Source: an uncultured Thermoplasmata archaeon | Lineage (GTDB): Archaea > Thermoplasmatota > Thermoplasmata > Halarchaeoplasmatales > Halarchaeoplasmataceae | Assembly: GCA_964398905.1 (NCBI GenBank) | Contig: CAYNOV010000002.1 | Location: forward strand, 1-40,991 | Direction: 5' to 3' | DNA length: 40,991 nt | Shown here: positions 321 through 18,147 of the stretch, piece by piece | Layout: each line of letters starts with the position of its first letter | How positions within the stretch are numbered: position 1 is the stretch's first letter | Translations under genes and position numbers: made by a program | The notes under the pieces: generated by a model | Told to the model about the DNA's origin: nothing | Seen by the model: the letters and a program-made list of their open reading frames with translations, nothing else | The model's database searches: none

Positions 321-323
321 TGC

Positions 324-1076: not shown

Positions 1077-2113
1077 TAGAATCAAGAAAAGAAGATCATA
1101 TAAATATTTGTTTAAATGAAGATGTAGATGCTGAAAAGAATTTTTGGAATGATATTGAACTTTATCATCGTGCTGCTCCAGAGATAGATTTTGAGGATAT
1201 AAATATAGAGAAAGAATTCTTAGACAAAAAATTGTCCGCTCCGATAATGATCGCCGCGATGACTGGAGGTTACAGCGAAGCTGAAAGTTTCAACGAAAAA
1301 TTGGCTTCCGCGGCCGAAGAGGTCGGAGTAGGCTTTGGTGTCGGCAGTCAGAGAGCAGCTATCGAAAATCCCGAATTGAGAGATACTTACGAAATTATTG
1401 CAGAATATTCTCCCCCGGTAGTGATGGGTAATTTAGGTGCTCCACAATTGATAAGACAGGATGGAAATCAACCTATGGGTGTAGAAGATGCTAAAACCGC
1501 TTTGGAAATGATAGATGGTGATTATCTAGCTGTCCATTTCAATTATCTGCAGGAATCAGTCCAGCCGGAAGGTGATCTTAAAGCTAAAGGTGTTATCGAA
1601 AGTCTGAAACGTCTTTCTTCTGAGATCCCTACAATAGCTAAAGAGACTGGAGCAGGTGTTTCCACTGAAATGGCTTTAACTTTTCAGGATGCTGGAGTCA
1701 AAGCGATAGATGTTGGTGGAAGAGGAGGGACCTCGTTCTCAGCTGTTGAACATTTTAGGAACGAAAGGTCCGACATGAAAAACATATCTAAGAACCTTTG
1801 GGATTGGGGTATTCCTACACCGGTTTCAGTGATCGAATGCAGGGGTTCAGTTTCGTTGCCGTTGATAGCCACTGGAGGTATAAGAAACGGTATTCAAATA
1901 GCTAAGGCCATCGTTCTTGGGGCAGATATAGTAGGAATAGCAGGAGGAGTTTTAGACGCATTGGCTGAAGATGAAAAAAGCGTGCAGGAATATCTCCAGA
2001 GGGTGATCCGGGAACTGAAGACGGTGATGTTCTTATTGGGTTGTGACGACCTTGACGATCTTTTGCGTGTTAAGAAGGTCATCTCAGGGGATCTAAAGGA
2101 TTGGATGAAGTGA
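1073..2113 (+). CDS. fni: isopentenyl-diphosphate delta-isomerase, type 2 (FMN-dependent)
   Basis: 346 aa TIM-barrel flavoprotein pattern: MTGG, ETGAGVS, GGRGGTSF, ATGGIRNG. Translationally coupled to IPK. Confidence 0.9.
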   Translation: MIESRKEDHINICLNEDVDAEKNFWNDIELYHRAAPEIDFEDINIEKEFLDKKLSAPIMIAAMTGGYSEAESFNEKLASAAEEVGVGFGVGSQRAAIENPELRDTYEIIAEYSPPVVMGNLGAPQLIRQDGNQPMGVEDAKTALEMIDGDYLAVHFNYLQESVQPEGDLKAKGVIESLKRLSSEIPTIAKETGAGVSTEMALTFQDAGVKAIDVGGRGGTSFSAVEHFRNERSDMKNISKNLWDWGIPTPVSVIECRGSVSLPLIATGGIRNGIQIAKAIVLGADIVGIAGGVLDALAEDEKSVQEYLQRVIRELKTVMFLLGCDDLDDLLRVKKVISGDLKDWMK

Positions 2114-2131
2114 TTTTTGGAGAGGATAATC

Positions 2132-3115
2132 ATGGATATGATAAAAGAATTAGAAGATAGGAAGGAACTTATCGATAGAAAGATAAAACAACTGTTTGAA
2201 GATAAGAAAGATCATCAACTTTGGAAATCTATGGCGTATTATCCTGAATCGGGTGGAAAAAAACTAAGACCTTTTTTGACTATGGTTTCCACGGGAGCTT
2301 TTGGTGAATCAGAGGAAAAGGCCATCCCTTATGCATTGGCTCTAGAGCTCGTTCACAATTTCACTTTAGTCCATGATGACATAATGGATCAAGACGAACT
2401 CAGAAGAGGAGAACCAACTCTCTATAGAAAAGTTGGAGACGCCCATGCTATCAATGCCGGTGACGGTCTTTTCGCATTAGCGTTCAATATATTGACTCAG
2501 ATGGAAGTAGATGATGAGAAGATAGTAAAATTACTTGACGAATTATCATCCTCCGTTCTCAGAATAGCAGAAGGACAAGAAGAAGATCTCAGTTTTGAAA
2601 GAGATTTCGATATCGAAGAAGATGATTTCATACAGATGATAGAAAAGAAAACCGCCTATCTTTTCAGAGCTTCTACAAGAGGTGGGGCGGTAATCGCTGG
2701 TTGTAACGAAGAAGAGATCGAAGCGATCGGTGAGTACGCTAGAAAGATGGGTATAGCCTTCCAGATACAGGACGATTATCTTGATCTTGTCGGAGACGAG
2801 GGTAAGATCGGAAAAGACGTTGGTAGCGATATCAAAGAAGGTAAAAGGACCTTGATGGTAATCAAAGCCCTATCTGAGTTGACTGGAGAAAGAGCCGATA
2901 GACTCTTAGATATCCTTGAAAAAGATGACAATACAAAGGCAGAGATAGAAGAGGCTATCGATCTTTTTGAGGATGCAGGAGCTATAGAGTATTCTAGAAA
3001 CTTAGCTAGAAACTACGCATCCCAGGCAAAAGCCGAATTGAGTGTTGTTCCAGATAACGAATATAAAAAGATACTAGAAGAGCTAGTCGATTTCGTTATC
3101 AACCGAGATAGGTAA
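2132..3115 (+). CDS. idsA: geranylgeranyl diphosphate synthase (short-chain trans-prenyltransferase)
   Basis: First Asp-rich motif is DDIMDQD and the second is DDYLD. Phe lies 5 residues before the first motif, consistent with a C20 product. The track start at 2117 is TTG. ATG at 2132 has GGAGAGG about 6 nt upstream, so I prefer it. Confidence 0.85.
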   Translation: MDMIKELEDRKELIDRKIKQLFEDKKDHQLWKSMAYYPESGGKKLRPFLTMVSTGAFGESEEKAIPYALALELVHNFTLVHDDIMDQDELRRGEPTLYRKVGDAHAINAGDGLFALAFNILTQMEVDDEKIVKLLDELSSSVLRIAEGQEEDLSFERDFDIEEDDFIQMIEKKTAYLFRASTRGGAVIAGCNEEEIEAIGEYARKMGIAFQIQDDYLDLVGDEGKIGKDVGSDIKEGKRTLMVIKALSELTGERADRLLDILEKDDNTKAEIEEAIDLFEDAGAIEYSRNLARNYASQAKAELSVVPDNEYKKILEELVDFVINRDR

Positions 3116-3131
3116 AAACTCTTGCGATCAT

Positions 3132-5372
3132 TCAATCTTCTTCATCTTCTTGATATTTCCTTTTGAACTCGCTCTTCTCTATCTCTTCTAAGAGTTCTTT
3201 TAATACTTCTTGGGTTTCCTGCAGGTCTTCGAAATCTCCTCTCTTTTCCAATTCTTCAGCCTGTCTTTCTAATTTCATTTCTTTTCTCCTCAATTCATCT
3301 TCCTTTTCCTTTAGAGTTTTCTCCCAATCTTCTAGATCCTCTTCTCTTTTGTCTAGGTCATCTTCTAGTGACTCTAGATTTAATTCATGTTCGTCAAGAT
3401 ACTCCTTTCGCTGATCTAGTTCTTCTTCTAGTTCTTTCAAATTTTCTTCTCTCTGTTGGAGTTCTTTTTCTCTCTCAGAGATGCTTTCTTCTAGAGAATT
3501 AATATCATTCTCTTTTTGCTCTAATTCATCTCTTCTACTTTTCAGATCTTTTTCAAGCTCATCTAATTGTTTTGCCTTTTCGTCTAACCTTTCTTCCTCT
3601 ATGCCCAGTTCGTCTTCGAAGGACTGTAGATCACTTTCTCTTTCATCCAATTTTCTTCTACTCTCTTTAAGTCGTTCCTCCAATTCGGCAATTTCATCTT
3701 CTTTTTCCTTCAAATCTTCATCTTTATCTTCTAGTTGCTCTTCTAGAGTATCTAGATCATCTTCTCGATCTTTTAGACTTTCTTTTCTGTCTTCTAATTC
3801 CCTCTTTAAGTTTTCTAGTTCTTCTTCTCTCTCATCTAGATCCTTTTCTTTTTCATCTAAATCTTCCTTACGCTCATCGAGTTCTTTTTCATAGTTTGAG
3901 AGTTCAACTTTCTTCTCATCTAGATCTTCCGCTTTCTCTTCCAGCTGCTCTTCTAGAGAATCTAGATCCTCTTCTCGATCCTTTAGACTTTCCTTGAACT
4001 GATCGAGTTCCTTTTCCAATTCTTCTAATTCATTTTCTTTATCTAAGACTTTTTGCTCTTTCTCATCTAGATTTTCTTTTATAGAGTCGAGATCATCTTT
4101 CTTCTCATCCAATTCATCTCTGCGATCATCGAGTTGTTTTTCATACTCGGAAAGTTCGTTTTCCCTTTCATCTAGATTTTCTGCTTTCTCTTCCAGCTGC
4201 TTTTCTAGTGAGTTGAGGTCTTCTTCTTTTTCACTTATACTTTCTTTTCTACTTTCCAGTTCACTTTCCATCTCTTGCAATTCGCTTTCTTTATCTTTCA
4301 GATTTTGTTCCCTTTCCTCGAGTTCCTGTTGTAGAGATTTAAGATCGTCCTCACGTTCGTTTATATCTTCCTTTTGTTCTTCGATCTCTTTTTTGATCTC
4401 TTCAAGTTCATCTTCTTTTTCCTCTATTTTTTTATCTTTAGCTTCTAAGTCGTTTTCGAAAGATTCTAGGTCCTTTTCTCTTTCATCTAAACTTTCTTTT
4501 CTTTTTTCCAGTTCACTTTCCATCTCTTTTAACTCGGTCTCCCTTCCTTCCAATTCCTCCCTTCTCTCTTCCAGTTCATCCTTCAAGGAAGCGAGTTCGT
4601 CTTCCTGTATAACCAACTTTTCATTCCTTTCATCGAGTTGTTCTTCGTAATCAGAGAGTTCTTCTTCTTTCTCGGCGAGATTTTCTTCTTTTTCTTGCAG
4701 TTCTTTCTCTAGCGTATCTAAATCATCCTGTCTCTGATCTAGCCCCTCTTCTCTGCCATCTAGTTCTTCTTTCCGTTCCATAAGATATTCTTCTTTATCC
4801 TCTAAATCTTGTTCCTTTTCATCTAGTTCTTCTTCGAAGGAATCGAGGTCATTTTTACGCTGGTTCATCTCATCTTCTCGTTCGTTCAGTCTTTTTTCCA
4901 AAGAATTCAATCCGTCTTCCCTCTCATCTAAATTCTCCTTGAACTGATCTAATTCCTCACCCAGTTCTTCAAGATCTGTTTCTTTATCCTTTAAAGTTTC
5001 CTCCCTGTTGTCCAATCTATTTTCTCTCTCATCGAGGTCCTCTACACGTTCATCGAGTTGTTTCTCAAATTCGTTGAGTTCGTCTGTTCTATCATCTAAT
5101 CTAGCTTCGCGCTCATCGATCTCATCTTTTAGGTTAGTCAGTTCATTTTCTTTTTCTTTTAATTCTTCCTTTCTTTCGTCCAATTCATTTTCTTTGGTCT
5201 TTAAATCTTCCTTCCATTTGTCTAGATTTCTTTCCCTGTTCTCTAGATCCTCTTCCCAGGATTCTAAATTGATTTCTCTACTGTCAAGATCTCCCTTTCT
5301 TCGTTCAAGCTGAGTTTGGAACTCATCCAATTCTTCTTTTCTGTCGTCAAGTTTCATTTCAAAAGAGTCCAA
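3132..5372 (-). CDS. giant acidic coiled-coil protein, downstream segment; in frame with ORF 5436..8357 across one TAG
   Basis: 746 codons of E/K/D/R-rich heptads with Leu at every 7th residue. The track 'M' at 5372 is TTG, and the first ATG is at 5357. It shares a frame with the upstream ORF (5438-5372=66). TGA stop at 3132..3134. Confidence 0.7.
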   Translation of the reverse strand: MDSFEMKLDDRKEELDEFQTQLERRKGDLDSREINLESWEEDLENRERNLDKWKEDLKTKENELDERKEELKEKENELTNLKDEIDEREARLDDRTDELNEFEKQLDERVEDLDERENRLDNREETLKDKETDLEELGEELDQFKENLDEREDGLNSLEKRLNEREDEMNQRKNDLDSFEEELDEKEQDLEDKEEYLMERKEELDGREEGLDQRQDDLDTLEKELQEKEENLAEKEEELSDYEEQLDERNEKLVIQEDELASLKDELEERREELEGRETELKEMESELEKRKESLDEREKDLESFENDLEAKDKKIEEKEDELEEIKKEIEEQKEDINEREDDLKSLQQELEEREQNLKDKESELQEMESELESRKESISEKEEDLNSLEKQLEEKAENLDERENELSEYEKQLDDRRDELDEKKDDLDSIKENLDEKEQKVLDKENELEELEKELDQFKESLKDREEDLDSLEEQLEEKAEDLDEKKVELSNYEKELDERKEDLDEKEKDLDEREEELENLKRELEDRKESLKDREDDLDTLEEQLEDKDEDLKEKEDEIAELEERLKESRRKLDERESDLQSFEDELGIEEERLDEKAKQLDELEKDLKSRRDELEQKENDINSLEESISEREKELQQREENLKELEEELDQRKEYLDEHELNLESLEDDLDKREEDLEDWEKTLKEKEDELRRKEMKLERQAEELEKRGDFEDLQETQEVLKELLEEIEKSEFKRKYQEDEED
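3736..4208 (-). repeat. near-identical intragenic DNA copies at 210-nt and 252-nt offsets (70-aa and 84-aa super-repeats)
   Basis: 3736..3782 versus 3946..3992: 44 of 47 nt identical, offset 210. 3916..3956 versus 4168..4208: 38 of 41 nt identical, offset 252. Both were compared by hand. Confidence 0.8.
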
Positions 5373-5435
5373 ATTTTCTTTTCTCCTGTCAAGGTCATCT
5401 TCGATATTTTCTAGTTTTTCCCATTCATTTTCTAT

Positions 5436-8348
5436 CTAATTTTTTGCCTTGACCAAATCGTTTTCTTTTTCATCCAATTCTGCATCTCTTTCTTTTATTT
5501 TTTCGGCTCTATGCTCAAGTTCGTTTTCCCACCCTTCGATCTTGACTTCTTTCATGTCGATTTTATTTTCACGTCTCTCTAAACTCTGCTGCCAATCCTC
5601 TAGATTATCCTTCTTTTCATCTAGATCTGACTCGATAGAATCTAAATCTTCTTTTCTTTCTATCAGTTCGTTTTGAAGTTCTACAAGCTCATCTTCGCGT
5701 TTATTCAAGACCTCATTATAGGAATCTAGTTTTTCTTCACGTTGGTCCAAATGGTCTTCCAATTGAAGGATCGACTCTTCGAGCTCCAAGATACGATCCT
5801 CGACTTTGTTCAAGCCATCTTCTTTTCTGTTCAAACGGTCTGACTTCTCTGAAAGATGTTTTTCCTTTTCATTCAAGCGTTTGTCTCTCTCCTCTAGCTG
5901 ACTCTCTTTCTTATCTAAATTGTTATTTAGTTCATCGAGTTTTTTCTTACGTTTATCTTGTTCTTTCTCTCTACTTTCAACACTTTTTTCTCTTTGTTGT
6001 ATGGTGTTACTCCATGTATCTATATATTCCTCTCTTTCTGTCACTTTAGACTCCAATTCGTCAAGGGTATTTTCTCTTTCTTCGAGTTTTTCTTCAAATG
6101 AGTCTAGAACCTCTTCTCTCTTCTCTACTATATTTTCTCTTTTTTCTACTTTTGAATTCTTTTCTTCCAATTCTACATTTTTTTCATCCAATCGCTTCTC
6201 TAGGTCTTTTAGCTCTGTTTCCCAATCCTTGAGATAACCTTCTTTTTCATTCAGATCCTCCTGTCGATTATCCAGTTTTTCACTTCTAGTTTCTAGACTA
6301 AGATACATCTCATTAAGAGCATTTTCTATGTTACCAAGTTCTTCCTCCCAAGTCTTCAAGCTCTCTTCCCTTTCATCCATCGCCTCATCTAATTTTTGGA
6401 TCTTATCCAATCTATTTTCAAGTTTATCTTCATAATTTTCCAAACTTTCTTTCCTTCCAGTAAGATCAGTTTCCCATTCCTCTAATTGGGTCTCTCTAAG
6501 ATCAAGGTCGAATTGATGATCGGCTAGATCTTCTTCCCATCTCTGCAATCTTTCATCCTTGTTTTCTAATTCCTTTTGTTTGACCTCTATTTTCTTTTCT
6601 TCTTCATTTATCGATTCTTTTCTCTCATCAAGCAATTCTTCTGTTTTCTTCAATTCTTCTTCCTTTTCTTTTAATTTGCTTTCAATCTCTTCGATATTAC
6701 CTTCTCTTCTTTCCAGTTTCTCTCGTTTCTCCGTTATATCTTCTTCTTTTCTATCGAGAATTGTTTCTCTTTTAGAGAGTTTTTCATCTTTATCGCTTAA
6801 TTGTTCTTCCCACCCCTCTAATTCGACTTCTTTCAGGTCTAGAATCCTTTCTTTTTCTTTCAGCCGTTCATCCTTATCTTCTATAGCCTCTTCTCTTTTG
6901 TCGATTTCGAGTGAACGTTGATCTAATTTTTCCATCCTAGTTTCTAATTCATCTTCGAGCTTTTCAAGAGAGCCCTCTTGTTTTTCTAGTGTTTGTTCTT
7001 TTTCCTCAAGAGTCTCTTTTAGATCGGTCAATCGATCCTCTTTTTCGTCTAGATCGGATTCTCTTTTTTCGACTTCTTCCATCTGTTCTTCTACATCTTC
7101 TTCAAAATTTTCTAGATGTTCTTCAAGCTCTTCAAGATTTGTTTCTCTTATGTCTAATCTGGTACCTCTTTCTCTCAGTTCTTTCCTCTCTCTTTCTAAA
7201 TTTTTCTCTCTTTCTTTGATCTCTCTTTCCTTCTGGGAATATTCTTTCTCTAGAGCTTCAAGTTCCTCCATTCTATTTTCTATTTTCTCTTCTTTGGATT
7301 CCAATTCTTCCTCTTTCTCCTCGAGTTCCCCTTCTATGTCTTCTATTTCAGCCTCTCTTTGGTCCAGACTTCTTCTTTCCTTTTGGAGTTCTTCTTTACC
7401 TTCTTCGATCTCTCCTTTTATCTCATCGATCTCCTTTCTTTCCTTCTTTATCTCTGCCAGATCTGATTTTATTTTTCTTTCTCTATTGCTGATGCTCGAT
7501 TTTATTTGATCTAGATTTTTTTTCTTTTCCTTCAACTTCTTTTCTCGCTCATCCAACCCCTTCTCTCTTTCCTGGATACGATCCTTTTTTTTCTCAGCCA
7601 ACTCTATCTCTTTTTTCAATTCTTTCTTTTTCTTTTCTAGCTCTTTCGTCTCCGATCTGTTGTTTTCTAGTTCATCTTTCCAATCTTCTAGCTCTGTTTT
7701 GAATCGATTCAGTCTATTTTCTTTCCTCTCAAGCATCATCTCCTTTTTCAGAAGAGACTTGATAATACCTATAGTGCCCCCGTTTATATCCTGAAGAACA
7801 TCTAAGTCCTCTTCATCGAGATCTTCGACACTCAGATCCTTCTCGACCTCTTTCTCCGCGAGCACCTCATCAATTATCTCCTGCTCATCGTATCCTTCAA
7901 AGTTCCCATCTTTTATGAGATCGCCTTCAGGTCTTTCATCTAGGTTTGAATCTTCTTGAGCGGCAGAACTCAACTCAGTGAAAAGTTCTATATCTACATC
8001 CTCTTCGATTTTACAGTTTTCAAATTTAGATATGACTTGACCCATATAAAAATTTGAAGAGCGGGCACAAGAATAGAGTTCTAGGACAGAGTTTTTGTCG
8101 TAAGAGATCCGAGCCATTTCAGTAAAAGCTTCCTTTCCTTTTTTAGATTCACCGTTTTCTTCAAGGCGTGCAGCAGCCGGCACACCATCTTTTAATATTA
8201 TCACACCTTCAATTTTTGAATCTTCATCATCAAAATCAACTTTGAGATAGCCATCGAGTCCCCGCCGTTCTATATCCGATATGATATTTTTAACGGATTC
8301 TATACCTCCCATGCTCGTTGAAATCCTCTTGCCGGCTGGTATCTCCAT
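5436..8348 (-). CDS. giant acidic coiled-coil protein, upstream segment (globular N-terminal head, acidic linker, heptad array), ending at an in-frame TAG
   Basis: The track start at 8357 is GTG. ATG at 8348 has AGGTG 6 nt upstream, so I prefer it. About 120 aa of mixed-composition head and about 75 aa of acidic linker are followed by roughly 770 aa of heptads. Stop is TAG at 5436..5438. Confidence 0.75.
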   Translation of the reverse strand: MEIPAGKRISTSMGGIESVKNIISDIERRGLDGYLKVDFDDEDSKIEGVIILKDGVPAAARLEENGESKKGKEAFTEMARISYDKNSVLELYSCARSSNFYMGQVISKFENCKIEEDVDIELFTELSSAAQEDSNLDERPEGDLIKDGNFEGYDEQEIIDEVLAEKEVEKDLSVEDLDEEDLDVLQDINGGTIGIIKSLLKKEMMLERKENRLNRFKTELEDWKDELENNRSETKELEKKKKELKKEIELAEKKKDRIQEREKGLDEREKKLKEKKKNLDQIKSSISNRERKIKSDLAEIKKERKEIDEIKGEIEEGKEELQKERRSLDQREAEIEDIEGELEEKEEELESKEEKIENRMEELEALEKEYSQKEREIKEREKNLERERKELRERGTRLDIRETNLEELEEHLENFEEDVEEQMEEVEKRESDLDEKEDRLTDLKETLEEKEQTLEKQEGSLEKLEDELETRMEKLDQRSLEIDKREEAIEDKDERLKEKERILDLKEVELEGWEEQLSDKDEKLSKRETILDRKEEDITEKREKLERREGNIEEIESKLKEKEEELKKTEELLDERKESINEEEKKIEVKQKELENKDERLQRWEEDLADHQFDLDLRETQLEEWETDLTGRKESLENYEDKLENRLDKIQKLDEAMDEREESLKTWEEELGNIENALNEMYLSLETRSEKLDNRQEDLNEKEGYLKDWETELKDLEKRLDEKNVELEEKNSKVEKRENIVEKREEVLDSFEEKLEERENTLDELESKVTEREEYIDTWSNTIQQREKSVESREKEQDKRKKKLDELNNNLDKKESQLEERDKRLNEKEKHLSEKSDRLNRKEDGLNKVEDRILELEESILQLEDHLDQREEKLDSYNEVLNKREDELVELQNELIERKEDLDSIESDLDEKKDNLEDWQQSLERRENKIDMKEVKIEGWENELEHRAEKIKERDAELDEKENDLVKAKN

Positions 8349-8498
8349 GCTGAACACCTAATAGATATCGAAATATATACTTCTTTATATGATTGAATTT
8401 TATCATATAGGAGTTTCGGTCGGATTATAGTATTTTAGATTTTTTATGTTAAGTCTCAAAATTGAGATAAGGGCCAAAGTTCCTTTCACATCGATCGG

Positions 8499-9032
8499 TC
8501 AATCCTTTTTTAGGATGTCCTCGGCTTTATACATAGCTATAGTGGTATGTGGATGGCTTATTTTGTTCTGTTCCAACATCGAATAGGCTTCTTTTATGGA
8601 AAACTGGCATATGTCTATATCTTCTCCTTTATCATGATCAATATTTCCTCCTCTTTCTACAGTTCCAACGAAAAGATGGGCTTTCTGATCGTTCAAACTC
8701 GCAATAGGATGATACTCACACAGCTTTTCTGACTTCTGTAAAAGAAATCCTGTTTCTTCCTCGAGTTCCCGCTCTGCCGCCGCTTCAGCGGTTTCACCTT
8801 TATCGATAAAACCAGCTGGAAGTTCTATCACTTTTTCATCAATCGGATACCTGTAGTTTTTGATCAGTATCAATTTGTCTTCAAAAACTGGTAGGATCCC
8901 TGCAAAATCTGGAAGGTCAAGCATGGTATAGGTCTTTTTCGATCCATCTGGTAGGATCAAATCATCTTCGGTCAGCGTGAATAATGTTGAATCTGCGATT
9001 TTTCTAGACTCCTCTTTTTTCCATCGAGCCAT
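8499..9032 (-). CDS. NUDIX hydrolase (ADP-ribose pyrophosphatase-like)
   Basis: Nudix box GFIDKGETAEAAAERELEEETGF matches GX5EX7REUXEEXGU. Confidence 0.85.
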   Translation of the reverse strand: MARWKKEESRKIADSTLFTLTEDDLILPDGSKKTYTMLDLPDFAGILPVFEDKLILIKNYRYPIDEKVIELPAGFIDKGETAEAAAERELEEETGFLLQKSEKLCEYHPIASLNDQKAHLFVGTVERGGNIDHDKGEDIDICQFSIKEAYSMLEQNKISHPHTTIAMYKAEDILKKD

Positions 9033-9063
9033 GTTCTCGGTAAAACATTAGACCTATTTTTTA

Positions 9064-9639
9064 TTATCCCAGCAGAAGTGCTTCTAGCAGAAATATACTA
9101 CCGAGTATTATGAAAAGCGAACCCGCGATAAGATCTATTTTTTTACTTTCAAGAAGTTCTCCTATCTTTGAGCCGAGCACCACGCTTATAGCTATTATCG
9201 ATCCCATTCCTATTAGAGCTCCTATGAGAACGGAGAAAGGAGATGCGTATCTCGCGGTCAAAGCTATAACAGCAAGCTGCGTCTTATCACCGAACTCAGC
9301 AAATATAGAAAATACAAAAGAACTCCATACGACCCTTCCGTTATTTTTTTCTATATTTACCTTCTCACCATTGTCATAAAATATGGTATAGATGCCAAAA
9401 AATATGAAGATCATAGACGCGAATATCTTAACATAGGTGACGGGAACAAATTGAAAAAGTATAGTACCTAAAGCTACAGCCAATATAGTGACGATGGCGA
9501 TGCCTGCAAATATCCCTGCGAAGACAGCCTTGTTATCGTATCTAGACGCTAGTGAGATAGTCATCAATTGACTTTTATCACCGAACTCTGCTATGAAGAC
9601 GGTGGAGAAGGTTATCCCAATAACAAATAGCCATAGCAT
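9064..9639 (-). CDS. UPF0016 / GDT1-TMEM165 family cation (Ca2+/Mn2+) transporter
   Basis: Multi-pass membrane protein with two copies of the family signature E-x-G-D-K-[ST] (EFGDKSQ and EFGDKTQ). Confidence 0.8.
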   Translation of the reverse strand: MLWLFVIGITFSTVFIAEFGDKSQLMTISLASRYDNKAVFAGIFAGIAIVTILAVALGTILFQFVPVTYVKIFASMIFIFFGIYTIFYDNGEKVNIEKNNGRVVWSSFVFSIFAEFGDKTQLAVIALTARYASPFSVLIGALIGMGSIIAISVVLGSKIGELLESKKIDLIAGSLFIILGSIFLLEALLLG

Positions 9640-9692
9640 CGGGATGTCTTTTCATTTGAGATATAAATAGGTTTTGTTTGCAGGATATAAGT

Positions 9693-10292
9693 TCAAAAGG
9701 TTTTTTCTCTTCGATCGATCTCGTTATGGACCAAAGTCACAGAATGTGATGTGAAATACTCTCTAGGTCCTACGGAAATCTTCTCAACTCCCATCTCTTC
9801 GCATTTTTTGAGTATTTTTTTCGGGAATCCTTTGTGATCACCCAAAATGAAAATCGGATCCTTTTCGACCTTTAGGTCTCTGATGTCATCCCCTTTTCTT
9901 TCAAGGAGATATAGCGGATGATGTGATATCTTCTCCAACAATTTATTGATATCTAACTTTGATAGATATATGCCGTCATGGGTCTCCATCCAGCCATCTT
10001 CAACTACATCCCTATATCTCAAGCACTTCTTTAACCATGTAGCTATATTTCTTTCATCAGGAGAAACTCTTTTCAAACTGGAACCGTCTAATTTGATAGT
10101 CAAAGGAGGGTCTGGTTCCCCATTCAAACAGATATTTATTCTAGTATCTTTTCTCATATCGTTCGAGAGCCAAAGTGCAGAAATTATGCTTTTACAGATA
10201 AGATCCATCCTCCCTCCACTTCCTGGAAGGTCTTTCAAATTAAAATCTGGGGTAGTAGCTCCTTTACTAGAATAGATAATGAACTCTCTCAT
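9693..10292 (-). CDS. trmY: tRNA (pseudouridine54-N1)-methyltransferase TrmY (SPOUT, DUF358)
   Basis: N-terminus MREFIIYSSKG...NLKDLPGSGGRMDLICKSI and the VSPDERNIA segment match my recollection of archaeal TrmY. Confidence 0.75.
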   Translation of the reverse strand: MREFIIYSSKGATTPDFNLKDLPGSGGRMDLICKSIISALWLSNDMRKDTRINICLNGEPDPPLTIKLDGSSLKRVSPDERNIATWLKKCLRYRDVVEDGWMETHDGIYLSKLDINKLLEKISHHPLYLLERKGDDIRDLKVEKDPIFILGDHKGFPKKILKKCEEMGVEKISVGPREYFTSHSVTLVHNEIDRREKTF

Positions 10293-10410
10293 ATACAGAC
10301 TAAATCGAAATGAAGCTTTAAGTCTTTCCTACAATTGACTGAGTGACTTCCTATCTAAAGACGGATTAGATTTATATCTCATGAATTTGTAAACAAGTTA
10401 GGCTCAAACA

Positions 10411-11439
10411 ATGAAGATATCACCTTTGGTTATACATCCTCATCATATAGATTTCTTTGAAAATCTACATAACGAGCTTAGAGGTAAGGGACATGATGTT
10501 CTCTGTTTCGTGAGAGATGACGATGTAAACAGAGAATATATTCAGGATTCTGATATAACTCACAGCTTTTACGGCTCGGGCCCGAAGGGTTATCTCCCAG
10601 ATTTCGTATCTAGATATAAAAACCAGTTCTCTCTAGCTAGAAAGCTCTTCTCTTTCAAACCAGACCTTATTTTTTCCGTAAACAGCATCCCTTACTCGAC
10701 TTTCAATTCTATATTCAACATTTACTCCGTTACGTTTTTGGATAGAAGACTGCAAAAGAAGGACGAGAAGAAGATATTTAGGCATGCAGATAAGATCGTC
10801 ACGCCTGATTGTTACCCTTTCGAAGTACCTTCCGATAAGCAGGTCTCTCATTCTAGCTATCATCCTTTTGCATATCTACATCCAAATAGATTTGAAGCCG
10901 ATCCTACTGTTTTAGACGATCTGACCGTCGAACCTAACGATTACGTACTCGTCAGCTTCGCTAGTAGGTCCTGGGAAGGCTTCACCGAGGAAGACCTACT
11001 CACTCGCAAAGAGAAGATAGATATTGTAAGGGAAATATCGGAATATAGGAAGGTTTTGTTAGATGGGAGAGGTTCTGTTCCCGAGCCTTTAGAGGAATAC
11101 GTTCCTTCTATTCCACTGAGGAGTTACAATCAACTCATGGCGAATTCAGAACTCGTTGTAGGTGACGACCCGATCATATGTGGTGAGGCGGGTGTTCTCG
11201 GGATACCATGGATTTTCATTTCTGAATCTTCTGCACCTACGTTAGAGGAGCAAGAGATACAATATGAGATAGGAACCCAGGTCGAAAGTATTGAAAAAGC
11301 CGATGAACTCGCAGAGATGCTATTAACTGGAGAGGTAGAGCCAGATTTCGAAAACGCTCGAGAGAAAATCCTAAATGATAAGATTGATCTTACTGAGTGG
11401 ATGGTTAAATTTGTTGAGATATCCGAAAAGATAATTTAG
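10411..11439 (+). CDS. DUF354 family protein (glycosyltransferase/epimerase-like fold)
   Basis: 342 aa. The N-terminal pattern (hydrophobic strand, then HHIDFF...L...GHDV) resembles DUF354. TAG stop. Confidence 0.55.
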   Translation: MKISPLVIHPHHIDFFENLHNELRGKGHDVLCFVRDDDVNREYIQDSDITHSFYGSGPKGYLPDFVSRYKNQFSLARKLFSFKPDLIFSVNSIPYSTFNSIFNIYSVTFLDRRLQKKDEKKIFRHADKIVTPDCYPFEVPSDKQVSHSSYHPFAYLHPNRFEADPTVLDDLTVEPNDYVLVSFASRSWEGFTEEDLLTRKEKIDIVREISEYRKVLLDGRGSVPEPLEEYVPSIPLRSYNQLMANSELVVGDDPIICGEAGVLGIPWIFISESSAPTLEEQEIQYEIGTQVESIEKADELAEMLLTGEVEPDFENAREKILNDKIDLTEWMVKFVEISEKII

Positions 11440-11473
11440 TTTAATTTGTCAGTAATTAGTAGGAGCTATATCG

Positions 11474-12235
11474 ATGAAGAGATGGTTCGAAGATGAATCC
11501 TTCTGGAAAGAGTTCAGGGACGTTTTATTTTCCGAAGAAAGGTTAGAGAGAACGGAGTATCAGGTGGATAGATTTGAGGAACTTTTAGGACTTGAGAAAG
11601 GAGACAAGATACTAGATCAGTGCTGTGGGATAGGAAGACATTCTATAGAACTAGCTAGAAGAGGATATGAAGTGACGGGGATAGACCTGACCGGAGCTTA
11701 CCTCGAAGAAGCTAGGGAAAAAAGCGAAAAAGAGAGTTTGGAAATAGAATTCATAAAAGCAGATATCCGAGACTTCAAAAGAGAAGGGTTTTACGATGCA
11801 GTGATCAATTTTTTCACTTCTTTTGGTTATTCAAAATTTGAAGAGGAAAATAGAAAAGTTCTACGAAATTCGTATATTTCTTTGAAACCAGGTGGAAAAA
11901 TTTTGTTAGATGTGATGGGCAAAGAGATATTGGAAAACATATTCACAGATACTGACAGGTGGAGGATGAAAGACGCTTATTTTTTGGAAAATAGAAAGAT
12001 AAGGGACGATCTTGAAATGCTTGAGTCAGAATGGAAATTGATCAGAGATGACGGTGAGGTCCACGAACATAAATTCATGTATAAGCTGTTCACGAAAGAA
12101 AAGCTAGAAAATATGTTGAGGGATATAGGTTTTGATGGAATAAAGATTTATGGAGATCTAGAAGGCTCTGGTTATGACGACAGCGCAAGAAGATTGATCG
12201 CGATCGCAGAAAAAAAGGACAAACACGAATTTTAG
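11474..12235 (+). CDS. class I SAM-dependent methyltransferase
   Basis: Motif I is ILDQCCGIGRH, with an acidic residue at the end of strand 2 (GIDL). AGGAG lies upstream of the ATG. TAG stop. Confidence 0.8.
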   Translation: MKRWFEDESFWKEFRDVLFSEERLERTEYQVDRFEELLGLEKGDKILDQCCGIGRHSIELARRGYEVTGIDLTGAYLEEAREKSEKESLEIEFIKADIRDFKREGFYDAVINFFTSFGYSKFEEENRKVLRNSYISLKPGGKILLDVMGKEILENIFTDTDRWRMKDAYFLENRKIRDDLEMLESEWKLIRDDGEVHEHKFMYKLFTKEKLENMLRDIGFDGIKIYGDLEGSGYDDSARRLIAIAEKKDKHEF

Positions 12236-12255
12236 GCGTAAACATTATATCCCTT

Positions 12256-12271
12256 ATGCTCAGTTGAGCAT
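12256..12271 (+). promoter_or_regulatory. palindrome ATGCTCA-GT-TGAGCAT between a TATA-like element and the moaA start
   Basis: Two 7-nt perfect inverted arms lie 6 nt upstream of the moaA ATG (12277). ACATTATAT at about 12243..12251 looks like a TATA box. Confidence 0.25.
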
Positions 12272-12276
12272 CTTGA

Positions 12277-13191
12277 ATGAAAGATCCTTATGGAAGAGAG
12301 ATAACGAATCTGAGAGTTTCGCTCACTCAAGAATGCAATCTAGACTGTTTTTACTGTCATAACGAAGGTGAAGAAGAAAGTCAATATAAAACAAGACTAC
12401 GATCGGAAGAGGTAAAGCAGCTGGTGAGAACCGCGTCAGACCTAGGTATGAACAAAGTAAAGTACTCTGGGGGCGAGCCATTAGTTCATCCGGAAATTGT
12501 TGAAATAATCTCAATTTCTTCTGAACTGATGGACGATGTATCTTTGACCACGAATGGAGTCCTACTTTCCGAAAAGGCGGAAGAATTGAGTGAGACTGGA
12601 CTTGATAGAGTCAATGTTAGTCTAGATGTGATGGATTCTGAAACTTATGAAAAGATAACAGGAATGGCTAATGTTGAGAAGGTCAAAAGAGGGATAGAAA
12701 AGGCCAACCAGGTCGGTCTCCACCCTGTAAAGATAAATATGCTTCTGATGAAGGGTTTGAATGAGGGGTCTATAGACCAAATGATGGGATTTGCAGCAGA
12801 CACCGGCTCTATACTTCAGGTCATAGAGATGACTAGCAGTAGAGAAGGTATCAGTGATGACTTCTATCAAAGGTATCATGTTTCGCTGGATGAATTGGCC
12901 TCAAAGATTGAGAAGAGAGCTGTAAGAACAGAAACTAGAAATATGCATGCTAGAAAAAAATATTTCCTAAAATCACCAGAAGTTGAAGTAGAACTCGTAA
13001 GAACGATGCATAACTCGACCTTTTGTCAGAACTGTACCCGTTTAAGAGTAACATCGAAGGGTGAATTGAAACCTTGTTTATTAAGGACTGATAATCACGT
13101 CTCTACAAAAGAGATCTTGAAGAGGAACGGGAACGTAAAAGATAAGTTTATCAAGGCTATAGAGGAAAGAGAACCGTATTGGTGTGAGTGA
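12277..13191 (+). CDS. moaA: GTP 3',8-cyclase MoaA (radical SAM)
   Basis: CNLDCFYCH matches the radical-SAM CX3CX2C motif. C-terminal Cys cluster CQNC...C. 304 aa. Confidence 0.9.
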   Translation: MKDPYGREITNLRVSLTQECNLDCFYCHNEGEEESQYKTRLRSEEVKQLVRTASDLGMNKVKYSGGEPLVHPEIVEIISISSELMDDVSLTTNGVLLSEKAEELSETGLDRVNVSLDVMDSETYEKITGMANVEKVKRGIEKANQVGLHPVKINMLLMKGLNEGSIDQMMGFAADTGSILQVIEMTSSREGISDDFYQRYHVSLDELASKIEKRAVRTETRNMHARKKYFLKSPEVEVELVRTMHNSTFCQNCTRLRVTSKGELKPCLLRTDNHVSTKEILKRNGNVKDKFIKAIEEREPYWCE

Positions 13192-13624
13192 GATGGTTGG
13201 AAAAAAAGCGTTAGTGACTGAAGAAGATTTTACGATAGAAGAGTTGAAAGAACGCGTGAGATCAGACGAGGATGGAGCACTCGTTGTTTTCAACGGGGTT
13301 GTTAGATCGAAGAATAAAGATCAGGAAGTAGAAAAATTGGAATTGCAGAGATATGAAGACATGACCGAAAGTGAACTTGAAAAAGTGAAAGATGAAGCTC
13401 TAAACAATTTCAAGATAAGTGATCTAGTAGTGGTTCATAGATATGGAGAATTGAACATAGGGGATAATATAGTCGGCATCGTTGCAGCGGCTCCTCACCG
13501 TGAAGATGCATTCGAAGCTTGTAAATATACTATAGACAGGATAAAGGAGAAAGTCCCTCTTTGGAAAAGAGAGACGACGAAGGGTGGAGAATCTAAGTGG
13601 CTTGATAAAGAAGAGAGTGAGTGA
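13184..13624 (+). CDS. moaE: molybdopterin synthase catalytic subunit MoaE
   Basis: MoaE-like pattern: FNGVVR...HRYGEL.IGD..V.I...APHR..AF.A....ID.IK..VP.WK.E. Start is GTG at 13184 or ATG at 13193, overlapping the moaA stop. Confidence 0.85.
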   Translation: MSEMVGKKALVTEEDFTIEELKERVRSDEDGALVVFNGVVRSKNKDQEVEKLELQRYEDMTESELEKVKDEALNNFKISDLVVVHRYGELNIGDNIVGIVAAAPHREDAFEACKYTIDRIKEKVPLWKRETTKGGESKWLDKEESE

Positions 13625-14082
13625 TCATGGGAATGATAGATATAAGTGGGAAGGAAAAAATTCCAAGGAGGGCTAGAGCTGTAGGAGAGATCTTACTCGA
13701 TGAAAAGAGTATAAAAGCTATTCAAAATGAAGATATCAAAAAGGGAGACGTTTTTCAGGTAGCAGAGATATCGGCCATACAGGCGGTGAAAAGGACTCCT
13801 GAAAGTTTACCTCACTGTCATCCTATCCCGATCGAGAGCGTGGATGTTAAATTCGATCTAACCGATGATACTTTGAAGGTAGAATGCGAAGTCAAAGCGG
13901 TTTACAAGACCGGTGTGGAGATGGAGGCTCTTTCAGGTGTGAACGCCGCTCTTTTGACAGTATGGGACATGGTGAAATACTTGGAAAAAGATGAGGATGG
14001 CCAATATCCCGATACCGCGATCAAAAACATTTCCGTTGTGGAGAAAAAGAAGGTGTATGAGGATGAGTCATCAAGAGCATAA
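13621..14082 (+). CDS. moaC: cyclic pyranopterin monophosphate synthase MoaC
   Basis: MoaC-like pattern: MIDISGK...R.A.A.G.I.L, LPHCHPIP, KTGVEMEAL.GV..ALLT.WDM.K. Start is GTG at 13621 or ATG at 13627. Confidence 0.85.
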   Translation: MIMGMIDISGKEKIPRRARAVGEILLDEKSIKAIQNEDIKKGDVFQVAEISAIQAVKRTPESLPHCHPIPIESVDVKFDLTDDTLKVECEVKAVYKTGVEMEALSGVNAALLTVWDMVKYLEKDEDGQYPDTAIKNISVVEKKKVYEDESSRA

Positions 14083-14554
14083 GAAAAACGCACCAGATCA
14101 TGTCGAATGTGCGGTGATAACAGTCAGTGATACTAGAGATGTCGATAGTGACGTATCTGGTAAGATGATCAGAGAGATGTTGATGGAAGAAAAACATGAG
14201 ATAGTTGGATACGAGATCGCTAAAGACGATGCGGATGATATAAGGAAAACTATAGAGTCTATAGATGCGGAAGCGTATATTCTAAATGGAGGAACAGGTA
14301 TAAGCTGTAGAGACGGAACGCCTGATGTTTTAGAGGAGATCATAGATAAAAGACTTCCCGGTTTTGGAGAGGCATTCAGGAGATTAAGTTTTGAGGAGAT
14401 AGGTTCGGCAGCGATATTGAGCAGGTCTCTAGCTGGCGTAGCCGATGAGAAGGTCTACTTTTCACTTCCAGGCTCTACTGCAGCGGTTGAATTAGCGATG
14501 AAAGAGCTAATATTACCAGAATTGGGTCACATCGTTTTCGAGGTGAATAAGTGA
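14057..14554 (+). CDS. moaB: MoaB/MogA-type molybdopterin adenylyltransferase
   Basis: VITVSDTR and GGTGIS.RD motifs. The track ORF begins at 13991 inside moaC. ATG at 14057 or 14063 is more plausible. Confidence 0.8.
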   Translation: MRMSHQEHKKNAPDHVECAVITVSDTRDVDSDVSGKMIREMLMEEKHEIVGYEIAKDDADDIRKTIESIDAEAYILNGGTGISCRDGTPDVLEEIIDKRLPGFGEAFRRLSFEEIGSAAILSRSLAGVADEKVYFSLPGSTAAVELAMKELILPELGHIVFEVNK

Positions 14555-15771
14555 TGGAAGAACAGAGGCCGTTTGGTGAACTCATAACTTACACCGATGC
14601 ACTTACTACTATTTTAGAGGAGGTCCGGCCTGTAGAAAGGAAAGAGATCATAGATTTGGATGACGCCTTTGAGAGAGTCCTTGCCGAAGATGCAGAAAGC
14701 GACATGTTCGTCCCTCCTTTCGATAGAGGGGCTATGGACGGATTCGCCGTAAAGGCTGAAGATACTTTCGAGGCGGGAAAATTTGATCCGATCGAATTGA
14801 AGAACATAGGAACTCTGCATGCTGGCGATTCGCCAGAAAAGGAGATCGGAAACGGAGAATGTATCCAGATCGCCACTGGGGCACCAATGCCTGAAGGAGC
14901 CAACGCTGTTGTAAAAGTCGAGGTCACAGAGAAAGAAGGAGATAAGGTGAAAATACACAAACCAGTACACCCTGGAGAGAATGTATCTCCTAAAGGAGAA
15001 GATATTGAAGAAGGAGAGACGGTAATAAAGAAAGGTTCGTTCCTTACTTCCGCAAAAATAGGCGCATTGGCAGCCATGGGAAAAGAAAAAGTAAAGGTAT
15101 ACGAAAAACCGAAGGTAAGTGTTATTCCGACCGGGGACGAAGTTGTTGCGGTCGGAGACGAATTGAAACCAGGCCAGATCTATGATGTAAACTCACATAC
15201 TTTGAAAAGTGTAGTAGAAAAAAACGGCTGTGAGGCTTGGAGAAAAGATGTCGTGCATGACACGATCGAAGGCCTAAAAGAGGGTATAGAGAAGGAAGTA
15301 AAAGATAAGGATATGATACTTTTTTCTGGAGGTAGCTCAGTTGGAGATAAAGACATATTGATCGACGCTTTAGATTCTATCGGAGAGGTGATATTTCACG
15401 GTGTGAAGCTCAAGCCGGGTAAACCGACACTTTTCGGAGAGGTTGAAGATACTTTGGTCGTTGGAATGCCGGGTTATCCCACTTCCTGTTTGAACACCGC
15501 TCAGCAGTTGATCAGACCGGGATTGAGAAAGATGTCTAGACTTCCAGAACCATCTGAAAGAAGTACCGACGCGGTCTTAGCGAAGAGGATCACATCCTCA
15601 TTGGGTAGGCAGCAATATATGACGGTAAGATTGGAAAACGAGAAAGCACATCCGGTTTACAAACAATCTGGAGCAATCACCAGCATGGCTCAGGCAGATG
15701 GTTATTTCGAGATCCCAGAAAATGTCGAATTGGTGGAAAAGGGAGAAAAGATTTCTGTAACGCTGTTCTGA
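14554..15771 (+). CDS. moeA: molybdopterin molybdenumtransferase MoeA
   Basis: About 405 aa with the MoeA domain pattern: RGAMDGFAV, IATGAPMPEGANAVV, IPTGDE, SGGSSVGDKD, KPGKP. ATG at 14554 overlaps the moaB TGA. Confidence 0.85.
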   Translation: MEEQRPFGELITYTDALTTILEEVRPVERKEIIDLDDAFERVLAEDAESDMFVPPFDRGAMDGFAVKAEDTFEAGKFDPIELKNIGTLHAGDSPEKEIGNGECIQIATGAPMPEGANAVVKVEVTEKEGDKVKIHKPVHPGENVSPKGEDIEEGETVIKKGSFLTSAKIGALAAMGKEKVKVYEKPKVSVIPTGDEVVAVGDELKPGQIYDVNSHTLKSVVEKNGCEAWRKDVVHDTIEGLKEGIEKEVKDKDMILFSGGSSVGDKDILIDALDSIGEVIFHGVKLKPGKPTLFGEVEDTLVVGMPGYPTSCLNTAQQLIRPGLRKMSRLPEPSERSTDAVLAKRITSSLGRQQYMTVRLENEKAHPVYKQSGAITSMAQADGYFEIPENVELVEKGEKISVTLF

Positions 15772-17604
15772 TCAGTCGACTATCTTGACGTTTTTTCCCG
15801 CATTCACATCTTGAATGAGTTTTCTAGCGACTCTAGTACCTTTTCTTACTTTTATAGAACCGCCCTGGCCCACGGTTACAGTTGACAGGTATTCGTTACC
15901 TGAAAACAGGTCCACAGTTTTCCCTATTTTTTCTCTTCCAGCTTCGATTATCACTTTTTCCTCGCCGACCAAAACGTCGACGTTTTTACCTTTGATCTTA
16001 TCCTTGATCACTCTTTCTCTTCCACTCGCCTCTTCTAATGGCTGTACATCGATCCTAAGACCTAATTGGTCTTCTATCCGTGAGATATTTTTCCCGTTCT
16101 TTCCTAAAAGTCTGGGTATTTGGCTGTCTGGAACGTAAACCTTTACTCTATCGGAACTTTCTACTTCGACTTCAACTCTGCCAGAAACGTATCTATTGAT
16201 CTCCCTTTGAATCTCTTTCTGTGCTATATCGTGTACAGGTTTGCTTCTTTTTTCTCCTTCAACGGGCATAACAACGACTTGTTCACCGTAGGAATATACT
16301 TCGTATTCTGGAACACCTGTTTCAAAATCTTTGACCTCTATCACCGGCCTGGCTAGATCCTCTTCAACCATCCCCTCAGGGACTTTCACTGTATATGTGA
16401 TGTCGTACACTTTTTTGATCTGAGCTTCCTCGACGAAAACTATCGTGTCAACGATCTGTGGTACCATCCCTAATTCGACTCTTCCTATTAGCCTTTGAAG
16501 TGCATCTATAGCGCGGTTCGCATGGGTTACTCCGATCATCCCCACTCCTGCTAGCCTCATATCCGCAAAAGTCTCAAAGTCCGGAGTCTTCCTCACTTCG
16601 TCAAAGATCGTGTAATCAGGTCTGACTAAAAGTAAAATATCCCCTGTATCTTCCATCTTACCTTCTAACTTACTGTATTGGGTTATCTCATCCCCTACTT
16701 GAAGATCTCTAGGGTCTTCCATCGTTTTTATTGTGAATTCACCTTTACGTAGATAATCTGCGATCGCCTGGGCCAACGTACTTTTCCCAGCACCTGGTGA
16801 ACCCGCTAAAAGCACGCCTCTTCGTCTTTCTGTAAATCTCTCTTTCAACTCTTCAGATAACTTATATTCCTCCAGATCGACTTTAGCTACAGGTCTGACA
16901 GCGGTTATCTCAAAACCATCAGAGAAAGGGGGTCTAGCTATAACGATCCGGATATTCTCCAATTGGACTACGGTAGCTCCACCTTTATCCACTTCTATGA
17001 ATCCTTTGGAAGATCTCTTAGCATTTTCGATGATGTTGTGAGCTAGAGCTTTTAATTCTTGATTGGTAGATTTTTCCTCTTTGATAATTTCTGTTCTGAT
17101 GTTGCCAGGGGTACCTTTTTTGGCAGTAGGTTTCGTCCCATCTCTCAAATGTACGGACATCGTATCTTCAGTGAAGTATCCCAGTATCTTGTTTCCCTCC
17201 TTTTCTTCCTCTAGAACAGGTTTGAGATATTCAACATTAACTCCTTTCGCCTTAGCGACTTCTGATTGTACCAGATCACTAGTCACCAATAATGCGTTTT
17301 CGTCAAGTGCGATAGAACGTATTATAGAATCTATCTCACCTTGGTCCGAGAGCCTTCGCTCATCCAATTTAGGTCTTTCACCTTTGAACAAAAGGTTGAT
17401 TTTTCCCGTTTCAGAGAGTTCTTTGATCTCCTGTATCTCTTCTAGACCGCTCATGCCAGTCTCTTGACCTCTGTTAGCTTGAGATTCGAGTTCGAAAAGA
17501 ACGGCTTCAGGTATTAAGACCTCGGCCCCCTCATAATCACCTTTTTTGACTTTCGATGTGATCCTTCCGTCGATTATAACGCTTGTATCCGGAACTATTT
17601 TCAT
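15772..17604 (-). CDS. PIN domain - PilT/PhoH-like ATPase - KH domain protein (conserved archaeal COG1855-type)
   Basis: N-terminus [13 protein letters not shown] is PIN-like. Walker A is GSPGAGKST. The C-terminal [22 protein letters not shown] is KH-like. Confidence 0.8.
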
Positions 17605-17623
17605 GTATATCGATGAAACTTGC

Positions 17624-17636
17624 TTTTATTTAAATA
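17624..17636 (-). promoter_or_regulatory. TATA-box-like element for the PIN-ATPase-KH gene
   Basis: The minus strand reads TATTTAAATAAAA, 20-32 nt upstream of ATG 17604. This implies a very short or absent leader. Confidence 0.35.
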
Positions 17637-17882
17637 CTTTTGACCATCTGATTTTCAAATTTATTAATTGATAACCGACGGGAACATTATTTTTATTCTC
17701 TATCTTAAAATATATTAAAATTCTCCTCCTCTGTTCGTCAGACGGATCCTTGCTTCAGGGTGAAAATACCCTCTTTTAACCCCTAATTTGCCTGGATAAT
17801 AACGAAACATATTTATATTAATAGTATATTATGGGTCTGGGAGTTGGGTATGACGCCATCTCCGAAGTAGGAGGTAAAAATA

Positions 17883-18104
17883 ATGAGCATGGAAAAAATA
17901 AGTGTTGGAAAAGCCAAAGAGATAGCCGATGAAAAAGGCTTAAAACCCGGACTAGTCAAAGGTACTGACGGTATACAGTTCACCAAAGGAAACAATGATA
18001 GGATCGAAACGGTTTCTTGGGAAGAATTCGAAGAGAAACTTGAAGAAAGAGATCTCGCTGTTTTCGAATCAGGCGGCTGGATGAAGATAATGAGTGATGA
18101 ATGA
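17883..18104 (+). CDS. small acidic hypothetical protein (73 aa)
   Basis: GGAGGT at 17870..17875 lies 7 nt before the ATG. An AT-rich TATA-like TTTATATTAATA lies about 60 nt upstream. A hairpin plus T-tract follows the gene. No family recognised. Confidence 0.6.
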   Translation: MSMEKISVGKAKEIADEKGLKPGLVKGTDGIQFTKGNNDRIETVSWEEFEEKLEERDLAVFESGGWMKIMSDE

Positions 18105-18106
18105 AC

Positions 18107-18147
18107 GAGGACTGAGTAATACTCGGTCCTCTTTTTCTTTTTTATTT
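18107..18147 (+). terminator. hairpin plus oligo-T terminator-like element
   Basis: GAGGACTGAG (18107..18116) pairs with CTCGGTCCTC (18122..18131) as 10 bp with one G-T wobble and a 5-nt loop. TTTTTCTTTTTTATTT follows. Confidence 0.5.

Follow-up and report, generated by a model that had tools for sequence, protein, structure and literature searches.

Whether two neighbouring reading frames separated by one stop codon are two genes, one broken gene, or one gene whose stop codon is read as an amino acid is the question raised by a locus in an uncultured Thermoplasmata archaeon. The DNA analysed here, which we call the window, is the stretch of 40,991 nucleotides (GC ~0.40) at positions 1 to 40,991 of contig CAYNOV010000002.1 in assembly GCA_964398905.1. 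On its minus strand lie two adjacent open reading frames (ORFs), 5436..8357 and 3132..5372, both encoding giant coiled coils. An earlier note, made from the sequence alone, proposed that they form one frame interrupted by a single TAG, and offered for this TAG four options, namely a sequencing or assembly error, a very recent nonsense mutation, programmed read-through, and recoding of UAG as pyrrolysine (Pyl). By comparison with orthologues and with a second contig of the same species, we find that the two ORFs belong to one conserved gene in which the TAG stands in place of a glutamate codon, and we weigh below how this TAG may have come about.

Two reading frames form one conserved gene

Direct translation puts the two ORFs in the same frame. 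The interval 3132..8357 comprises 1,742 codons, and the TAG at 5438-5436 is the sole stop inside it; in every detail the direct reading agrees with that of the earlier note. At the break the minus strand reads GTC AAG GCA AAA AAT TAG ATA GAA AAT GAA TGG, and the 63 nt after the TAG are open in the same frame, encoding IENEWEKLENIEDDLDRRKEN. The upstream ORF has 973 amino acids (aa) if counted from GTG 8357, an alternative start given by the ORF list; the orthologues begin with MEIPAGKR at the ATG at 8348. Numbered from this orthologue-supported ATG, codons 1-970 occupy 5439..8348, the TAG at 5436..5438 is codon 971, and codons 972-1738, with the downstream half of the rod and a C-terminal motif, occupy 3135..5435 and are closed by the true stop TGA at 3132-3134. 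If the TAG terminates translation, codons 1-970 would give a product made of the head and ~750 aa of rod.

Along this frame, an N-terminal globular head of ~130 aa (7959..8348), predicted to be alpha/beta and distantly DUF2226-like from an AlphaFold2 (AF2) model and from the Pfam matches of its orthologues, is followed by a continuous heptad rod of ~210 heptads (residues ~218-1708; 3225..7697) with the TAG inside it, and then by a conserved C-terminal motif, GDFEDLQETQEVLKELLEEIEKSEFKRK (3135..3239), common to the single-ORF orthologues. The earlier note saw a leucine every seven residues kept in register across the TAG, and our register analysis finds this to be much stronger than it was described: with the TAG counted as one residue, every heptad between residues ~218 and 1708 has a hydrophobic residue, mostly Leu, at one and the same mod-7 phase, on both sides of the break. 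A 5.2-kb frame with a single stop is not a product of chance, because it is colinear from end to end with orthologues that are single ORFs.

These orthologues come from 10 other species of hypersaline and soda-lake Thermoplasmatota, and one same-species contig, L082, was compared with them. All 10, as well as L082, read through the break point without a stop. Seven of the 10 are complete ORFs (that of L003 and six metagenome orthologues of 1,592-1,731 codons), and the other three leave their contigs still open after 1,066-1,233 codons. In L003 the slot between the GGPP synthase gene (GGPPS) and the NUDIX/GDT1 genes is filled by one ORF on the minus strand, with 1,717 codons in all and 1,705 from the conserved MEIPAGKR start. 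An orthologue from a Great Salt Lake metagenome-assembled genome (MAG) is colinear with the window from the N-terminal head to the C-terminal motif. By BLASTP, window residues 1-1738 align with L003 residues 1-1700 in a single colinear segment pair at 40.5% identity, which spans from the head in the upstream ORF to the GDFEDLQxTQxVLKELLEExEKSEFKRK motif in the downstream one; the C-terminal motif is matched by L001, L002 and L003 at 70-78% identity. The global alignment of the window and L003 has no gap across the TAG. In the multiple alignment of 11 sequences the surroundings of the break are well conserved (RENxLDMREVKNEGWExELE...KE-E-IExRE), the column of the TAG holds Glu in 10 of the 11 (GAG or GAA) and Lys in one, and a stop or a start is found there in no orthologue.

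Judged by sequence comparison, the proposal that the two ORFs form one conserved archaeal coiled-coil gene of ~1,740 codons is thus confirmed. The pattern expected of a genuine gene boundary, with orthologues encoding two proteins and a conserved start at this point, was not found, all of them reading through.

Other arrangements were seen at a greater distance. In distant Thermoplasmata MAGs the slot beside GGPPS holds a headless giant coiled-coil ORF of 1,296-1,438 aa (L006:11924-16240, L004:11005-15309, L005:3031-7002 and L007:5054-8944). The headless rods of L004-L006 end in a different shared C-terminal motif (...KMEEIGRxxF/Y), and L006 encodes a separate 293-aa protein with a DUF2226-like head at L006:10995-11876. 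A giant rod gene appears to be a conserved feature of the GGPPS neighbourhood, in several architectures.

The stop codon is one base away from GAG

Over 16.5 kb, window 1823..18348 and the soda-lake contig L082 are 98.77% identical (200 mismatches, 3 gap openings), and because of this identity we count L082 as the same species, represented by another strain or assembly. At the site of the TAG its codon is GAG, so that the two codons differ by G>T at 5438 (minus strand) and nowhere else; the TAG of the window is therefore one G>T change. The view of the earlier note that the TAG replaces a sense codon, for which GAG was its first guess, is borne out by this codon.

L082 has a lesion of its own in the same gene. 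At L082:13789 it carries a 2-nt deletion, by which AGAAGGGAGG becomes AGAAGAGG and the GG at window 4559..4560 is missing; the frame is shifted at ~codon 1263 and meets its first stop at codon 1278, and past the deletion the +1 frame stays open for 482 codons and reaches the normal C-terminus. The giant gene is hence disrupted in two assemblies of one species, by a different lesion in each. With 341 GAA, 127 GAG, 150 AAA and 66 AAG codons (28% Glu and 13% Lys in composition), the gene has 6.8% stop-creating changes among all possible substitutions, compared with 4.7% in the other genes, and it makes up 19% of the nonsense target of the window.

Changes between the two strains also bear on the age of the lesion. 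The ratio of nonsynonymous to synonymous change per site (pN/pS) against L082 is 0.35 upstream of the TAG, 0.57 from the TAG to the frameshift of L082 (4560-5435) and 0.26 beyond it (3135-4556). Beyond the TAG, 24.5 nonsynonymous changes were counted along with 15.5 synonymous ones, and neutrality would predict ~33 nonsynonymous. These counts indicate that the downstream half has been translated for most of the time since the strains diverged, and since it is under purifying selection, the TAG is either very young or not real. For the whole gene pN/pS between the strains is ~0.34, compared with 0.12-0.19 among intact orthologues, and for the flanking genes it is ~0.08 (pooled).

Divergence from L082 is uneven along the window, being ~4% in 2000-4000 and ~1% elsewhere, and the synonymous component (pS) is 0.16 in GGPPS, 0.07 at the 3' end of the giant gene and 0.01-0.05 in other genes. 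This suggests a recombination tract across the convergent gene ends at 2000-4000. A further contig, a Logan contig of 2.3 kb from SRR16248216 that represents the strain of the window, is 99.91% identical to window 230-2526, and the TAG site lies outside it.

TAG is used as an ordinary terminator

The earlier note argued against genome-wide recoding from a count of six other genes of the window that end in TAG. The count was reproduced, six of the 39 other ORFs (~15%) being terminated in this way; in related loci TAG ends 21 of 150 ORFs. Moreover, for two window genes that end in TAG, the orthologues match over the whole length and have their stop, be it TGA, TAA or TAG, at the corresponding position. 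Because TAG ends are exchanged for TGA or TAA at orthologous gene ends, TAG is a normal and interchangeable terminator in this clade, which agrees with that argument.

No other pair of ORFs joined by a TAG was noticed among the window ORFs by inspection, which did not include a systematic re-prediction with TAG as a sense codon. The 41-kb window yielded no tRNA, no Rfam match, and no methanogenesis or methylamine genes, and its gene content is heterotrophic. A tRNA scan of 17 related loci gave no tRNA-Pyl, a result that is uninformative given how little sequence was covered. When 126 nt spanning and following the TAG were folded as RNA, the minimum free energy was -6.6 kcal/mol, whereas shuffled sequences averaged -10.4 (z = +1.6). 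The only calls in the tRNA scan of the related loci were three unassigned ones, a syntenic 'tRNA-???' of 96-98 nt that ARAGORN reported with an unparsable anticodon (L003:3907-4004, L004:3852-3947, L006:3871-3966), which is probably an intron-containing archaeal tRNA misread in bacterial mode.

Possible explanations of the interrupted frame

Taken together, we regard it as fairly probable that the TAG is a real, young and strain-specific nonsense allele. On this explanation, 3132..8348 (minus strand) is a single gene for a cytoplasmic protein of ~1,738 residues, composed of a DUF2226-like head, an unbroken heptad rod of ~1,490 residues and, at the C-terminus, a conserved motif of acidic and basic residues. 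At codon 971 of this assembly, GAG for a conserved Glu has turned into TAG by the one G>T substitution, and the strain, if the base is real, would carry a young nonsense allele whose product is a truncated protein of 970 residues with the head and half of the rod and with the C-terminal motif missing; the downstream 767 codons would be untranslated, or translated at trace level only. That there is one gene, which codon is ancestral, that TAG is used normally and that the lesion is recent are shown by the comparisons, and both the true presence of the T in the DNA, as opposed to a consensus error, and this outcome at the protein level are what we infer. In our judgement, a large and mildly relaxed target accounts better than two random errors for the independent lesions that the two assemblies have in the same gene. 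A real allele is favoured further by the absence of repeats that could mislead assembly, by the size of the nonsense target, and by a pN/pS that is higher between the strains than among intact orthologues or in the flanking genes. Several points weigh against such an allele. The T may instead come from a wrong base call or consensus, or from a minor allele that the assembler chose; an error predicts equally the purifying selection on the downstream half, and G>T is a typical class of oxidative-damage artefact. The raised pN/pS between the strains may be the usual inflation at short timescales. As to the head of the window protein (7959-8348), it departs at 18 columns from a residue that the 10 other orthologues have in common, and the otherwise invariant motif ELYSYSHSTSN reads ELYSCARS-SN in it, which could reflect a long branch or relaxed constraint in this species; we considered this divergence as a sign of decay and set it aside, as it is inseparable from a long branch, and a long branch may be all there is to it. 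The explanation by error, in which the gene is intact with GAG at codon 971 and either the sequencing or assembly consensus is wrong or a minor population variant has entered it, is for us a possible but doubtful one. It gains from the difference to the same-species contig being a single base, from the clear purifying selection and the perfect frame and register of the downstream half, from all relatives being intact at the TAG site, and from the clustering of three differences from L082 within 20 nt of the site. It loses from the assembly side, since the giant gene has no exact DNA repeat of >=25 nt and no repeated 12-mer at the site, so that repeat-induced misassembly is unlikely and nothing is long enough to confuse a de Bruijn assembly; Illumina consensus substitution errors are rare; and the independent assembly L082 is disrupted in the same gene as well, which biology explains more easily than two errors.

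With the nonsense allele and the base error, two of the four options of the earlier note remain, and the other two, programmed read-through and pyrrolysine, found no support, the stop not being conserved even within the species. That the UAG is functionally suppressed, by pyrrolysine or by programmed or leaky read-through, so that full-length protein is still made, is in our view very improbable. Frame, register and coding constraint do continue beyond the TAG, and low-level near-cognate read-through of any stop is possible in principle. The TAG, however, is present neither in L082 nor in any orthologue, TAG terminates genes here at an ordinary rate and in exchange with TGA and TAA, and the region after it is less structured than shuffled controls, so that neither a stop conserved among relatives nor a 3' stimulatory RNA structure, the marks of programmed read-through, is seen. 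As for pyrrolysine, Methanomassiliicocci, which belong to Thermoplasmatota, encode it, and some archaea read every TAG as Pyl; within Thermoplasmatota, however, it is reported only for Methanomassiliicocci, and in the genomes with all TAG read as Pyl, internal TAGs are numerous and true TAG stops scarce or absent (bioRxiv 10.1101/2024.09.30.615893). Neither published pattern, that of the lineage, judged here from the literature, or that of many internal TAGs with rare TAG stops, is seen here; the nearest genomes are non-methanogenic Thermoplasmatota MAGs. It is likewise highly improbable that a real TAG is suppressed in part, whether near-cognate read-through or an undetected Pyl system is the cause, giving half- and full-length rods in a soda-lake species whose coexisting strains repeatedly switch the rod off by independent lesions, the TAG in one and the 2-nt deletion in L082; if true, such repeated switching would mean strong fluctuating selection on the giant rod protein. 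The least probable case, for which we see hardly any chance, is a genuine two-gene arrangement with the downstream ORF translated from TTG 5372 or ATG 5357 by means of an AGGAG. The candidate elements of this restart, which the earlier note held conceivable, lie as it described within 5355..5387, with AGGAG at 5387..5383, 10 nt upstream of the TTG (5370-5372), and the first ATG at 5355-5357; operon-internal genes of the organism do carry GGAGGTGA-like Shine-Dalgarno motifs, and distant relatives such as L006 do encode a head protein and a headless giant rod as separate genes. We nevertheless judge the arrangement to be due to chance, because 11 of the 65 in-frame ATG, GTG or TTG codons of the gene (~17%) have GGAG or GAGG 5-17 nt upstream, no orthologue has a stop or a start at the break, or a Met or a start at the column of the candidate restart, the same species has GAG at the site, and the split of the L006 type differs in order and position and does not correspond to the break.

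The finding is accordingly an ordinary interrupted gene or a base error, and not a case of stop-codon recoding. For the biology of the genetic code it has very little weight, and the TAG should not be counted as a recoding candidate, because it differs by one base from a sense codon, is not conserved, and occurs in an organism for which TAG is a normal stop. For annotation, the two ORFs should be given as one interrupted gene, or corrected after a check of the reads, and not as two proteins. As a by-product of modest value, an uncharacterised family of giant rod proteins, with conserved synteny and under purifying selection, is defined in halo(alkali)philic Thermoplasmatota.

The giant rod protein family

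The rod of the window protein has no stutter or stammer and shows a 21-residue superperiod. Position a is hydrophobic in essentially every heptad, and position d is so in ~2-3 of every 7 heptads, that is, in about one of three. Full-length orthologues hold one heptad phase for ~1,400-1,490 residues, except for one phase change in L086, and in the orthologues L003 and L083-L091 insertions and deletions respect the repeat, 195 of the 234 gap runs being multiples of 7 residues. The family, which is uncharacterised, thus has a coiled coil of unusual regularity and length; if fully helical, the rod would measure ~220 nm, taking 0.15 nm for each residue. By eye, neither a signal peptide nor a transmembrane segment was evident. 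A function as a cytoskeletal or spacer rod is speculation.

For the head, an AF2 model built on a 17-sequence alignment (pLDDT 86, pTM 0.81) predicts a beta-sheet packed on helices, while AF2 with the single sequence was uninformative (pLDDT 43). The model has no significant neighbour in the PDB (best E 0.03, TM 0.26). Eight of 12 orthologous heads match DUF2226 (PF09987) with a best E of 1e-7, and the distant relative P0006 matches it at 1e-13; the window's own head has no Pfam match even at E <= 1. A HMMER search over 1.84 billion representative proteins gave only 22 relatives, in which a coiled coil comes after a head; one of them matches DUF2226/DUF4388. A full-text literature search for DUF2226 returned no paper.

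Nothing was on record for the exact products of the two ORFs, taken with two alternative starts each, or of the GDT1 neighbour; a word-indexed protein search returned nothing with the head alone or with a 12-sequence alignment, and a scan of a genome collection with the head domain also returned nothing. Only two routes led to the family, the GGPPS neighbour together with synteny, and an alignment-based scan of metagenomes.

Matches of the rod to known families were rejected. As SMC it scores 110-132 bits against cut-offs of 567-729, as Rad50 46-62 bits against 700-1,087, and as ASRP 110 bits against 300, with only coiled-coil segments matching in each case. The Pfam and NCBIfam matches of the rod in general (RNase_Y_N, SMC, Rad50, FlbB and others) are taken as noise of coiled-coil composition, nearly all of them being below the curated cut-offs; RNase_Y_N, FlbB, PgrA and other short Pfam coiled-coil models exceed theirs, and match only short multi-copy stretches of the rod.

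Organism and genomic neighbourhood

On one side the giant gene is neighboured by genes for isopentenyl-phosphate kinase, type-2 IDI and GGPP synthase, and on the other by those for a NUDIX protein, GDT1 and an RNA methyltransferase; farther along the window lie molybdopterin genes, a form-III RuBisCO/AMP-phosphorylase/R15P-isomerase cluster and MCM. The closest relatives of the GGPPS, at 56-71% identity, are from uncultured Thermoplasmatota MAGs, one of them from Great Salt Lake. The contigs found by the metagenome scan belong to two samples, Kulunda soda-lake sediment (SL_8KL_010_SED) and Ga0207421. The abundant Thermoplasmata of that soda-lake dataset are a heterotrophic 'KTK 4A'-related group (PMC6146748), to which the window presumably belongs.

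Three other places in the window were recorded, all on the minus strand. At 19882-23545 an AMP phosphorylase-like gene (Glycos_transf_3), the gene for the form-III RuBisCO large subunit and that for ribose-1,5-bisphosphate isomerase (IF-2B family) stand in a row, and this cluster is the archaeal CO2-fixing module of AMP/nucleoside salvage. A 632-aa ORF at 24233-26131 has a short N-terminal zinc ribbon as its sole Pfam match and otherwise defies annotation. At 15772-17604 a 610-aa protein combines a PIN domain, a T2SSE-type ATPase and KH domains, and its gene abuts the MoeA gene (14551-15771).

Comparison with known systems

The locus can be compared with four known systems. Pyl-encoding UAG in Methanosarcinales and Methanomassiliicoccales, as well as Genetic Code 34, likewise present an in-frame TAG that has homologous coding sequence before and after it, the part beyond it exceeding 15 aa, and by this alone the TAG would fall into 'Category 1' in the scheme of Kivenson et al. 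(bioRxiv 10.1101/2024.09.30.615893). In contrast to these systems, TAG is here common and interchangeable at orthologous gene ends, the case is the only one noticed in 41 kb, the same species has GAG at the site, and the lineage is that of heterotrophic soda-lake Thermoplasmatota, not of a methylotrophic methanogen.

A strain-specific nonsense allele or young pseudogene in a prokaryotic genome or MAG resembles the locus in that a single base turns a conserved codon into a stop, the orthologues and the sister strain are intact at the site, and frame and constraint are still visible downstream. Compared with the usual young pseudogene, however, the gene is unusually large and nonsense-prone, being rich in Glu and Lys encoded mostly by GAA, GAG, AAA and AAG, and the sister strain carries a second, independent lesion.

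With respect to the protein, archaeal DUF2226 proteins with coiled-coil tails are built alike, with a coiled coil after an N-terminal head of ~125 aa; the short relatives among them have 200-530 aa, whereas the rod here is 5-10 times longer and the window's head escapes the Pfam model. Crescentin, the coiled-coil-rich proteins of Scy/FilP type, and the arms of SMC and Rad50 are alike in their extended alpha-helical heptads, and the rod models of SMC, Rad50 and crescentin give matches, which are compositional and lie far below the curated cut-offs of SMC, Rad50 and ASRP. Unlike SMC and Rad50, the window protein has no ATPase head, hinge or Zn hook, and unlike rods with stutters or hendecads, it runs through ~210 unbroken heptads in which only position a is consistently hydrophobic.

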